This document shows positions 17,483-20,774 of a stretch of DNA of 64,000 nt, piece by piece. Position numbers and translations under genes: made by a program. The notes under the pieces were generated by a model. The model was given only the letters and a program-made list of their open reading frames with translations. It was not told where the DNA came from and searched no databases. Positions within the stretch are counted from its first letter, which is position 1. Each line of letters begins with the position of its first letter. Where the stretch lies: the IMG/VR virus record IMGVR_UViG_3300037466_003648, positions 96,001 through 160,000 of that record, one strand, 5' to 3'. This DNA comes from a virus. Its lineage: Duplodnaviria > Caudoviricetes.

Positions 17483-18550
17483 ATGTCCGAGCAGACCCCG
17501 GAAACCACGGATCTCACCACCCAAGGCACCACGGCGCTCAGCACCGGCGCGGAGAACGCGCTGGCTTTGCTGATGCAGGCGGAGGAGAGCCTGGAGCAAG
17601 TCTACGACCAGATGACCGCCATGTCGGAGAACAACATGGGCGGCGCGGGTGCGGGCTCGTCTGGCTACGACTTCACCGGCAAGGTGAAGGTCGAGGTCCA
17701 GCGTAACGGCACGCTGGTCTTCCAGAACCCGTTCACCGGCAAGATCGACGGCGGCAACTCGATCAGCATCGTCCCCATCTCCGTCAAGTTCCAGCTGCAG
17801 CGCTGGTTCGGCGAGAAGGAGGAGATCGAAGGCATCGACAAGGAGAAGCAGAAGGGTCCCCTCTGCCGCTCCGTCATGTTCGAGGAGCCCGTCCCGACGC
17901 GCAACGCCGAGACCGGCGAGATGGAGAACGCCATCAACGAGACCGGCTGGTTCCACCAGCCTGCGATGTCCGCCTACAACGCGCGTCGCATGCTGCCCAC
18001 GCTCACCGGCAACCACGGCTGCGACGGCAAGAGCGGCATGACCCTCTGTGCCGACTGCCCGATGGCTGTTCAGGGCTACAAGGGCAACGAGCAGGGCGGC
18101 AAGTGCGGCCCCATCGGCATGGTCGAGTGCGTCATCTTCCAGGTCAACGACGAGTTCCTGCCGCAGCCGGTCTACGCGTACGTCAAGATGTCGGTCACCT
18201 CGATCATCGAGTACGTGGAGTTCCTCAAGCAGATCAAGAAGGTGCACAAGGACCCACGCACCGGCAAGGAGCTGCAGTCGCCCGTGATGCGCCTGATCCT
18301 GAAGCTCACCTGCGAGTCGCAGACCAGCGGCGCGAAGAGCTGGGGCAAGCTGAACTACCACGCCTTCGGCGCGGTCAACCCCAGCACCGAGCAGGGCCAG
18401 AACATCACGAAGACCATGGCGACCGCCATCGAGCTGACGACGGCCAAGCTGGCCGAGATCGCCGAGAAGGACGCCAGCAAGGCCAACAACAAGGGCAACG
18501 CGGGTGGTGGCGGCACCACCCAGGTTGCCAAGGCGGGCGCGCCCTTCTAG
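17483..18550 (+). CDS. hypothetical replication-module protein, possibly ssDNA-binding or annealing
   Basis: 355 aa, very biased codons, CADCP...KCG Cys cluster, flexible tail ending in PF. The function is inference only. Confidence 0.4.
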   Translation: MSEQTPETTDLTTQGTTALSTGAENALALLMQAEESLEQVYDQMTAMSENNMGGAGAGSSGYDFTGKVKVEVQRNGTLVFQNPFTGKIDGGNSISIVPISVKFQLQRWFGEKEEIEGIDKEKQKGPLCRSVMFEEPVPTRNAETGEMENAINETGWFHQPAMSAYNARRMLPTLTGNHGCDGKSGMTLCADCPMAVQGYKGNEQGGKCGPIGMVECVIFQVNDEFLPQPVYAYVKMSVTSIIEYVEFLKQIKKVHKDPRTGKELQSPVMRLILKLTCESQTSGAKSWGKLNYHAFGAVNPSTEQGQNITKTMATAIELTTAKLAEIAEKDASKANNKGNAGGGGTTQVAKAGAPF

Positions 18551-18866: not shown

Positions 18867-19277
18867 ATGGGCCATTTCAAGATCGGCGTCGCGCGTCTCG
18901 ACAACGCCAGCGATCCGCACCCGGACCCTGCTCAAGGGTTCGACACCTACGTCAAGTTCATCGACGACGAGGGCAAGGAGCACAGCATCCCGGCAACCGG
19001 GGTCGACGTCCAGCTGCGCGCCGGTCGCGCGGTGAACCTCGTCGCCATCACCACCGGTGCGTTCGAGCTGGATCTGCCTGGTTGCGTGGTCGACTTGATC
19101 CGCGATCCCGACGTCAATATGGAGAACACCTTCGACGCCAACCGCCGCAGCCACGTCCTCTCCGTCACCCCGGACGACCAGTTCAAGGCGGCTATCCTCG
19201 AAGCCATCGAAGTGGAAGCTCCTGGCACGAAGGCGAAGGTCTTGAAGCGCTTGGCCGAGCTGAAGGGAGAGGTGTAG
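18867..19277 (+). CDS. hypothetical protein whose C-terminal module is shared with 33976-34578
   Basis: AGGAGG RBS; C-terminus FKAAILEAIEVEAPGTKAKVLKRLAEL. Confidence 0.7.
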   Translation: MGHFKIGVARLDNASDPHPDPAQGFDTYVKFIDDEGKEHSIPATGVDVQLRAGRAVNLVAITTGAFELDLPGCVVDLIRDPDVNMENTFDANRRSHVLSVTPDDQFKAAILEAIEVEAPGTKAKVLKRLAELKGEV

Positions 19278-19278
19278 C

Positions 19279-20196
19279 GTGGCGCCCCGTGGTAAGTTCA
19301 TCCCGCCGTCCGGCATCGTCGTCGTGTTCGACTTCGAGACCACCGGCCTCGACCCCGCCGACGGCTCCGAGCCCATCGAGATCGCGGCCATCGCGATCGA
19401 TACGCGCAAGTGCCCGGAGTACCCCGAAGTGGGTCGCTTCCCGGCGCGCGTGATGCGCGTCACCAACACCGCCAAGTTGACGGAGACCTATGATGTTCGC
19501 GTAGGCGACACCCTCGACTCCATCGCGGGTGCGCACAAGACCACCACCGCCTGCCTGCGTGAGCTGAACCAGGTCGACTGGATCGACAGCATCAACCCCG
19601 GCGACGAGATCATCGTGCCGAGCGGTGCGCTGGGCGTGAACGGCAAGACGCCCCGCCAGGTGCTGGAGGGCGAGGACCCGGTTAAGGTCTTCCAGGAGTT
19701 CATCGACTGGTGTGGCAAGGTCACCGGTGCCCGCCACGGCAGCGTCAAGTGCATGCTCGCGGGCCACAACACCCAGTTCGACGTGCGCTTCCTCAAGGCG
19801 GCGCTGAAGCAGCACCTGCCGACCTTCGACTACGAGTCGTTGTTCGACTACCACGACCTGTGCTCGCACAAGGTCTTCCACTTCCGCCACGTCATGGTCA
19901 GCAAGCGCTCGCAGTTCTCGAACCTCGTGCGTGCCACCAAGATGTACGGCATCCCACACAGCGCCCACGAGGCGATGGGCGATGTGGAAGCCACGGTCGA
20001 AGTGTTCCGTCGCATGGCGACCGAAGAGAAGCAACTGGGCAGCGTCCAGCAGCTGGCCGCGGCTCTGCCGCACGTCCTGTACGGCTCGGCCGGTGACATC
20101 GACATGGTGAAGCTGGAAGCCCTGATCAAGCAGGTCTACCCGTCGATCAACACGAGCGACGAGTCGACCTTCCCCGTCCCCGCCCTCGCCGACTAG
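19279..20196 (+). CDS. DEDDh 3'-5' exonuclease (DnaQ/epsilon-like) with an inserted LysM domain
   Basis: DFETTG, GHNTQFD, HEAMGD; LysM-like YDVRVGDTLDSIA...LRELN...INPGDEIIVP at 19486-19620. Confidence 0.85.
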   Translation: MAPRGKFIPPSGIVVVFDFETTGLDPADGSEPIEIAAIAIDTRKCPEYPEVGRFPARVMRVTNTAKLTETYDVRVGDTLDSIAGAHKTTTACLRELNQVDWIDSINPGDEIIVPSGALGVNGKTPRQVLEGEDPVKVFQEFIDWCGKVTGARHGSVKCMLAGHNTQFDVRFLKAALKQHLPTFDYESLFDYHDLCSHKVFHFRHVMVSKRSQFSNLVRATKMYGIPHSAHEAMGDVEATVEVFRRMATEEKQLGSVQQLAAALPHVLYGSAGDIDMVKLEALIKQVYPSINTSDESTFPVPALAD

Positions 20197-20204
20197 GAGG
20201 TCTT

Positions 20205-20774
20205 ATGTCCGCACCGACCCGCGAAACCCTCATCGTCAATCTGTTCGCCGGACCCGGTGCGGGCAAGTCTACCCTCGCGGCGGGCTTGTTCTACAAGCTC
20301 AAGATGGACAAGCAGCTGCAGGTCGAGTACATCCAGGAGTACGCGAAGGACAAGACCTGGCAGTCGGAGGCGTTCACCCTCCAGTGTCAGCCGTATATCA
20401 CCGCCAAGCAGCTCTACCGGCAGCACCGCCTGTTGGGCAAGGTGGACGTGGTGATCACCGACGCACCTCTACTGCACGGCTTGATCTACCCCGGTCACTA
20501 CACCGGCCCCGACTTCGAGAAGTGGTTGGTCACCACCTTCCACAGCTTCTGGAACCAGAACATCCTGCTCGTGCGCGATGAAGACCCCGCCAACTACGAA
20601 GGTTACGGACGCTCCCAGACCTTTGACGAAGCGCGTGCCATCGACGAGCGGACCAAGGAGATCCTAGAAACGGCTGGTGTCGGTTACTGCACCGTACCTG
20701 CCCAGGGTCACGAGACCGTTGATCGTCTGGCCGACCTCGTGAACGCTGTCTACCGAGAGGCGAACAAGTCGTGA
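20205..20774 (+). CDS. P-loop kinase, AAA_28-like (copy 3, different subfamily)
   Basis: NLFAGPGAGKST, EYIQEYAK, ITDAPL, GRSQT. Confidence 0.75.
   Translation: MSAPTRETLIVNLFAGPGAGKSTLAAGLFYKLKMDKQLQVEYIQEYAKDKTWQSEAFTLQCQPYITAKQLYRQHRLLGKVDVVITDAPLLHGLIYPGHYTGPDFEKWLVTTFHSFWNQNILLVRDEDPANYEGYGRSQTFDEARAIDERTKEILETAGVGYCTVPAQGHETVDRLADLVNAVYREANKS

Follow-up and report, generated by a model that had tools for sequence, protein, structure and literature searches.

A LysM domain nested in the predicted DEDDh exonuclease of an uncultured phage

The DEDDh nuclease fold is common to RNase T (2is3, 3ngy), epsilon (1j53, 2gui), the PolC exonuclease and the DinG exonuclease of S. aureus (9ii8), none of which bears a domain in the loop between strand beta3 and helix A. 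The RNase T residues Gly28, Gln71 and Glu73 make up a "wall" that blocks the non-scissile strand and halts trimming at the duplex, and Phe29 and Phe77 make stacking contacts with the 3′ base (PMC3439924). The LysM fold, in turn, recognises GlcNAc-X-GlcNAc and touches about four sugars, for the most part through main-chain atoms (PMC4083421). A single LysM nested in another domain has been described for the MoCVNH-LysM lectin of Magnaporthe oryzae (Koharudin et al. 2011; PDB 5c8o; PMC4392113), and a LysM that docks on a partner domain, not on a glycan, is found in the E. coli potassium-binding BON-LysM protein Kbp (YgaU; PDB 7pvc), where the acidic residues of the LysM matter (PMC5681659).

The exonuclease considered here, P0001, comes from an uncultured phage known from an IMG/VR virus record of 205,180 bp that has direct terminal repeats; the window, i.e., the whole stretch of DNA that was analysed (64,000 nucleotides), corresponds to bases 96001-160000 of that record. 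P0001 shares the DEDDh fold with the enzymes named above, and with the phage exonucleases of PHROG 192 (P0003-P0012 and the genes of loci L006 and L018) it also has in common the D-E-D-H-D residues and the slot between a 355-aa protein and a helicase-primase. However, where the insert-less PHROG 192-type orthologues have a loop of 5-8 residues, P0001 carries a LysM segment of 54 residues. As in MoCVNH-LysM, the LysM is inserted and, by the models, both folds are kept; the host domain there is a fungal sugar-binding lectin, whereas in our case it is a cytoplasmic phage nuclease. Kbp is cytoplasmic as well, but its domains stand in tandem and are unrelated to nucleases, whereas the LysM of P0001 is nested within one.

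The exonuclease gene and its nuclease core

The gene, its start region and the motifs of the nuclease are located in the window as follows:

19265..19272 (+), Shine-Dalgarno sequence GGGAGAGG, 6 nt ahead of the exonuclease GTG
19279..20196 (+), gene of the DEDDh 3′-5′ exonuclease with a nested LysM (P0001, 305 aa; ORF, profiles and model)
19327..19350 (+), ExoI motif FDFETTGL, residues 17-24, with D18 and E20 (alignment)
19762..19782 (+), ExoII motif GHNTQFD, residues 162-168, with D168 (alignment)
19966..19983 (+), ExoIII motif H230-x4-D235 (HEAMGD), which defines the DEDDh subclass (alignment)

The GTG start codon of P0001 is positioned 1 nt past the stop of an upstream gene encoding 136 aa (TAG at 19275-19277), and the Shine-Dalgarno sequence lies inside that gene. 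The single base between the TAG and the GTG, along with the internal Shine-Dalgarno sequence, implies translational coupling. Strand beta1 of the nuclease starts from residue 13, and we found neither a signal peptide, in agreement with the original prediction, nor a transmembrane segment in P0001 (the maximum Kyte-Doolittle value over 19 residues is 0.98). An extracytoplasmic location is a typical, not a defining, trait of the LysM family, and P0001 does not show it.

The residues D18, E20, D168, H230 and D235 are invariant in the alignment of 26 relatives. The protein matches Pfam RNase_T (PF00929) with 68.4 bits against a cutoff of 24, the match being split in two around the insert, and PHROG 192, "DNA polymerase exonuclease subunit", with an E-value of 1.9e-26. 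The whole-protein AF2 model (mean pLDDT 86.4, pTM 0.79) has the RNase H-like alpha/beta architecture of the DEDDh fold and superimposes on RNase T, epsilon, the PolC exonuclease and the DinG exonuclease with an rmsd of 2.0-3.2 A over 165-190 residues. In a structure comparison made by way of this model, DinG-exo, epsilon, PolC-exo, RNase T, Cap18 and Cas-DnaQ tie at Z 19-20.5. None of the curated NCBIfam equivalogs (epsilon, RNase T, Orn, ExoI, DinG) was reached by P0001 at cutoff, and PADLOC returned for it generic DEDDh matches only, with no defence or anti-defence name. As judged from the model, P0001 is a generic DEDDh enzyme.

Two more specific identities were considered and rejected. DnaQ proper, the Pol III epsilon subunit, is contradicted by scores of 31.2 bits vs. 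71.5 (TIGR00573), 29.9 vs. 196 (NF004316) and 24.6 vs. 222.7 (TIGR01406). Ribonuclease T is contradicted by TIGR01298 (27.5 bits vs. the cutoff of 246.2), the likeness to RNase T being in fold only. Moreover, the partner expected of DnaQ proper, Pol III alpha (DnaE/PolC), is missing from the phage genome, to which this comparison is confined. Going by its sequence, the nuclease is a catalytically intact, cytoplasmic DEDDh 3′-5′ exonuclease with predicted activity.

The LysM segment: fold, authenticity and history

The segment that interrupts the nuclease was delimited by alignment, and the LysM domain within it by Pfam, PDB matches and models:

19465..19626 (+), inserted segment, residues 63-116, missing from insert-less orthologues
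19489..19620 (+), LysM domain proper, residues 71-114

The insert is located between strand beta3 and helix A, in the loop preceding the "A..[IV][HN]G" helix, with clean boundaries in the alignments against insert-less homologues; this is just where the original prediction had put it, between ExoI and ExoII. Pfam LysM (PF01476) covers residues 71-114 with its full model (1-43/43) at 31.4 bits, well above the cutoff of 20.9 (E 1.8e-7), and scores 35.2 bits in a six-frame scan. A control LysM HMM, built without P0001 and without the only other carrier of the insert, P0002, gave 68 bits for the former and 12.8 bits for the latter. The LysM of P0001 keeps the GDTL, IA, LN and PG..I.P elements and is thereby canonical. 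Its sequence alone matches solved LysMs, namely those of T. thermophilus P60 (4uz2, E 3e-5), Ecp6, LytE and YkuD, and is 38-40% identical to the ligand-bound LysM of T. thermophilus P60, which binds chitin and peptidoglycan (4uz2/4uz3). The insert has a net charge of -5 and a pI of 4.3.

In the whole-protein AF2 model, the pLDDT of the insert is about 89-95, and the prediction is confident over both junctions. The modelled topology is beta(68-72)-alpha(79-85)-alpha(90-97)-beta(110-114), and the same beta-alpha-alpha-beta arrangement is predicted for the insert folded alone. When the isolated insert was compared with the PDB by Foldseek, the top matches were all LysM (TM 0.69-0.78, rmsd 0.7-1.8 A, about 48 residues); the matches include 5c8o and 7pvc as well as the LysM folds of contractile-injection baseplates and of the mitoribosome. 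The models thus indicate that the insert is a true LysM fold nested in a DEDDh exonuclease. A LysM at 19486-19620 (residues 70-114) inside a DnaQ-like exonuclease had been predicted from the outset, and with the Pfam score above cutoff, the DEDDh residues intact and a LysM fold in both the whole and the isolated model, this structural part of the prediction holds.

The exact protein of 305 aa occurs on 4 recorded contigs (JGI/IMG), the 304-aa P0002 from an independent Logan assembly (63% identical) carries an in-frame insert at the identical site with a length within 2 aa, and the GC and GC3 of the insert are those of the rest of the gene; given also the confidently modelled junctions, the chance that we are dealing with an assembly chimera or a frameshift artefact at the LysM junctions, a danger to which the original prediction itself had drawn attention, is practically nil.

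The search for further proteins with an internal LysM in a DEDDh nuclease, proposed in the same prediction, was run over 1.84 billion representatives by HMMER and yielded one more carrier: P0002 was the sole protein matched in one stretch over both nuclease and LysM, and the other strong matches were insert-less exonucleases or multi-LysM wall proteins. A collection of 5.8 billion clusters contains seven homologues of P0001, with the insert only in P0002. Likewise, in the alignment of 26 relatives the LysM is confined to these two proteins, and about 100 other relatives, syntenic orthologues included, are devoid of it. It was found in none of the 75 exonuclease ORFs from the 74 viral and metagenome loci fetched, where the best identity to P0001 does not exceed 37% (IMG/VR and metagenome scans). 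A tblastn search of 50,697 phage records gave no match to P0001, the ESM Atlas holds no cluster uniting RNase_T and LysM, and we found no report of such a fusion in the literature on LysM with DnaQ or exonuclease. Taken together, these results allow us to conclude that the nesting of LysM in a DEDDh nuclease is real and very rare (two proteins in billions), though neither the host enzyme nor the inserted fold is unusual in itself.

The maximum-likelihood tree of the core, with the insert columns removed, has the topology (P0004,(P0003,(P0001,P0002))), with P0001 and P0002 as sisters (support 82/63; 79% of bootstrap trees). A single recent gain of the LysM after the split from P0003 fits this tree and is the simplest reading of the sequences. 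Since the gain, the two copies would have drifted apart: between P0001 and P0002 the core is 74-83% identical and the insert 33%. The P0002 insert scores 12.7 bits on Pfam LysM (E 0.13), below the 20.9 cutoff, and has lost the glycine of GDT and the register of the buried Asn. Because the P0002 branch is longer overall, the faster change of its insert does not by itself prove that selection differs between the lineages. A donor search seeded on residues 60-120 returned P0001 itself only (5.8 billion clusters), and a scan of the phage genome revealed no second confident LysM, the match in an 812-aa frame being a 14-position fragment (E 0.02) with no Pfam support. In a distant relative, P0036, an unrelated Pro/Asp-rich insert of about 12 residues occupies the same beta3/helix-A loop (alignment columns about 165-212), thus showing that the loop is permissive.

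Probable position of the LysM at the substrate cleft and its possible roles

To relate the insert to the active site, the family profile was aligned to E. coli RNase T (2is3, native numbering), which gave the following correspondences:

RNase T D23 / E25: P0001 D18 / E20
RNase T G28 / F29: P0001 G23 / L24
RNase T Q71-P72-E73: P0001 P114-S115-G116
RNase T F77: P0001 V120
19618..19650 (+), junction and helix A, P114-S115-G116-ALGVNGKT (alignment to 2is3)

The positions contacting the substrate in RNase T are kept in kind in P0001 (G23/L24 for G28/F29 and V120 for F77), whereas the wall residues Q71-E73 are replaced by the LysM exit. According to this alignment and the model, the last LysM strand (110-114) enters the wall position with essentially no linker, from which we infer that the LysM sits at the rim of the substrate cleft. 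This placement follows from the connectivity of the chain and the alignment to RNase T.

We tentatively favour the view that the LysM is a rigid appendage of the cleft rim, steric or docking in nature, that is tolerated or neo-functionalised, and not a wall sensor; we give it a probability of roughly 45%. A LysM module of about 50 residues would have entered the beta3/helix-A surface loop in the common ancestor of the two sampled phages; the N and C termini of a LysM are adjacent, which makes a nested seat possible without breaking the host fold. The chemistry would be that of the insert-less orthologues, probably the two-metal trimming of 3′ ends. The acidic LysM may act as a larger wall or gate, altering which DNA ends enter, or, alternatively, as a docking knob for a candidate partner among phage or host proteins. 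It would not be a conserved peptidoglycan-binding module. The fast divergence of the LysM suggests that it is perhaps only weakly selected. Since LysM-glycan contacts are mostly made by main-chain atoms and the P0001 copy is canonical, binding of GlcNAc oligomers may nevertheless persist. If the LysM is functional, a glycan-binding fold would have been put to new use in the cytoplasm, at the entrance to the active site of a nuclease, and P0001 would join the few LysMs that work away from the wall, such as those of Kbp and baseplate proteins; a graft at the position of the RNase T duplex wall would also offer a handle on substrate choice by DEDDh enzymes. At present, the architecture is a rare curiosity found in two proteins of a tiny carrier clade, and any function of the LysM is putative.

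The main rival, possible though in our opinion doubtful, is that the LysM is a neutral passenger, i.e., a LysM-coding fragment that illegitimate recombination placed in a permissive loop and that persists only since it folds without causing harm, while slowly decaying; it accounts for the data almost as well as a steric or docking appendage does. The insert has diverged two to three times as much as the core, and in P0002 the LysM signature is almost gone. The residues common to both inserts are mainly those that determine the fold (Y, V, DT, IA, L, PG, P). The closest insert-less relative P0003 and all the syntenic orthologues manage without a LysM, and the loop tolerates the small insert of P0036. 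On the other hand, the segment has stayed in frame and within 2 aa in length across two lineages whose cores are about 0.5 substitutions per site apart, useless DNA is usually purged from phage genomes, and the copy in P0001 is still fully canonical. Should the LysM prove functionless, the locus would represent a clean, datable case of a phage enzyme that took up a domain in a permissive loop.

Another explanation, which we consider unlikely, is that the LysM reports on the state of the cell wall by binding a cytoplasmic GlcNAc ligand (anhydro-muropeptides, UDP-MurNAc-peptide, or lipid I/II of the inner leaflet), thereby coupling the activity or localisation of the nuclease to it. The close match of the canonical P0001 LysM to the ligand-bound 4uz2/4uz3 speaks in favour of this, as does the mode of binding, which, being mostly main-chain, is hard to lose (PMC4083421); in addition, the modelled LysM is rigidly joined to the substrate-binding helix, which would suit allostery. 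However, the cytoplasmic precursors are mono- or disaccharides and P0001 has a single LysM module, so that a sensor of muropeptides or lipid II is possible but not favoured. Furthermore, much of the signature is gone from P0002, where both the GDT glycine and the buried-Asn register are missing, and the neighbourhood of the exonuclease is purely replicative, with no wall-related gene. A more definite version, in which the LysM senses a wall precursor or a product of wall recycling that contains GlcNAc, or ties the protein to lipid II at the membrane, and switches the exonuclease via the rigid junction in line with host wall status, appears to us improbable. Such a sensor, if it exists, would tie phage DNA metabolism to the state of the envelope in a new way. 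For the functional part of the original prediction, which had proposed that the LysM binds cytoplasmic muropeptides or lipid II, glycosylated DNA, or a protein partner, we found no support: the cytoplasmic precursors offer no GlcNAc-X-GlcNAc ligand of about four sugars, and the signature is decaying in P0002. Of these proposals, the protein partner is still conceivable.

There is also very little to recommend a role outside the cytoplasm or in the virion, where the protein would be packaged or released and anchored to peptidoglycan, e.g., for breaking down DNA at the wall while a phage enters, in superinfection or once the cell has lysed. LysM domains are a usual feature of proteins anchored to the wall, and LysM folds do occur in contractile-injection baseplates. 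Many wall-binding LysMs, however, are unlike the insert with its acidic pI of 4.3, and the protein lacks both a signal peptide and a transmembrane segment; the gene, moreover, is translationally coupled within a replication operon, and its orthologues occupy the same replication slot. The least credible of the proposed roles is recognition by the LysM of sugar-modified phage DNA, or nucleic-acid binding of some other kind: by the alignment the domain probably adjoins the 3′-end pocket, but its acidity (net charge -5, pI 4.3) argues against nucleic-acid binding, and a scan of the phage genome for the ThyA family (dCMP-hydroxymethylases included) and for GT-1 and GT-2 glycosyltransferases found none, leaving sugar-modified DNA, and with it the glycosylated-DNA binding proposed earlier, unsupported.

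The replication module and the C-terminal extension

In the window, the exonuclease is followed by an AAA_28 NTPase, an SF2 helicase and a DnaG primase. In the related phages L006/L039 and L018, an insert-less orthologue of about 209 aa is found in the order delta-like protein, 355-aa protein, exonuclease, helicase, primase. The exonuclease is a fixed part of the replication module of this phage group, which comprises the delta-like clamp-loader, the 355-aa protein, the exonuclease, the SF2 helicase and the DnaG primase.

Two neighbours deserve mention in their own right:

17483-18550 (+), 355-aa protein with no match in Pfam, PHROGs, NCBIfam or PADLOC
20205-20774 (+), AAA_28 / PHROG 2107 "thymidylate kinase"-like NTPase, between exonuclease and helicase

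The 355-aa protein holds a Cys cluster (C-x8-C-x2-C region) and has counterparts of 37-38% identity directly upstream of the exonuclease in L006/L039 and L018; it appears to be an as yet unnamed core member of the replication module. The NTPase gave no tblastn match (E 1e-5) in the related loci, and in L006 the helicase ORF begins 13 nt past the exonuclease, both of which indicate that the NTPase is a lineage-specific addition to the module.

The phage genome encodes no Pol III alpha (no PF07733 match) and no family-B polymerase. Its polymerase belongs to family A (717 aa; L005:457-2610 (+) = G000:C1:93625-95778, just upstream of the window) and has its own DEDDy proofreading domain with intact motifs LALDTET, HNLKFD and YAADD. 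The idea that P0001 serves as a trans-proofreader for a dead exonuclease site in Pol A was rejected: the "ALDPKK" aligned by phmmer is a look-alike, and the true LALDTET is upstream. The intact proofreading site of Pol A leaves no need, on this count, for proofreading by the stand-alone exonuclease. The look-alike lies about 12 residues past the true ExoI and misleads pairwise alignment.

Beyond the nuclease core, P0001 has a further segment:

20014..20193 (+), C-terminal extension, about 60 aa, predicted helical (alignment and AF2 model)

This extension, with a conserved LPH[VI]LYG and a terminal E-[SL]-T-F-P, is common only to the closest relatives P0002-P0004. The C-terminal tail may be a docking peptide, e.g., for a clamp or a polymerase. 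In the more distant exonuclease relatives, the C terminus is often a short [FL]-P tail.
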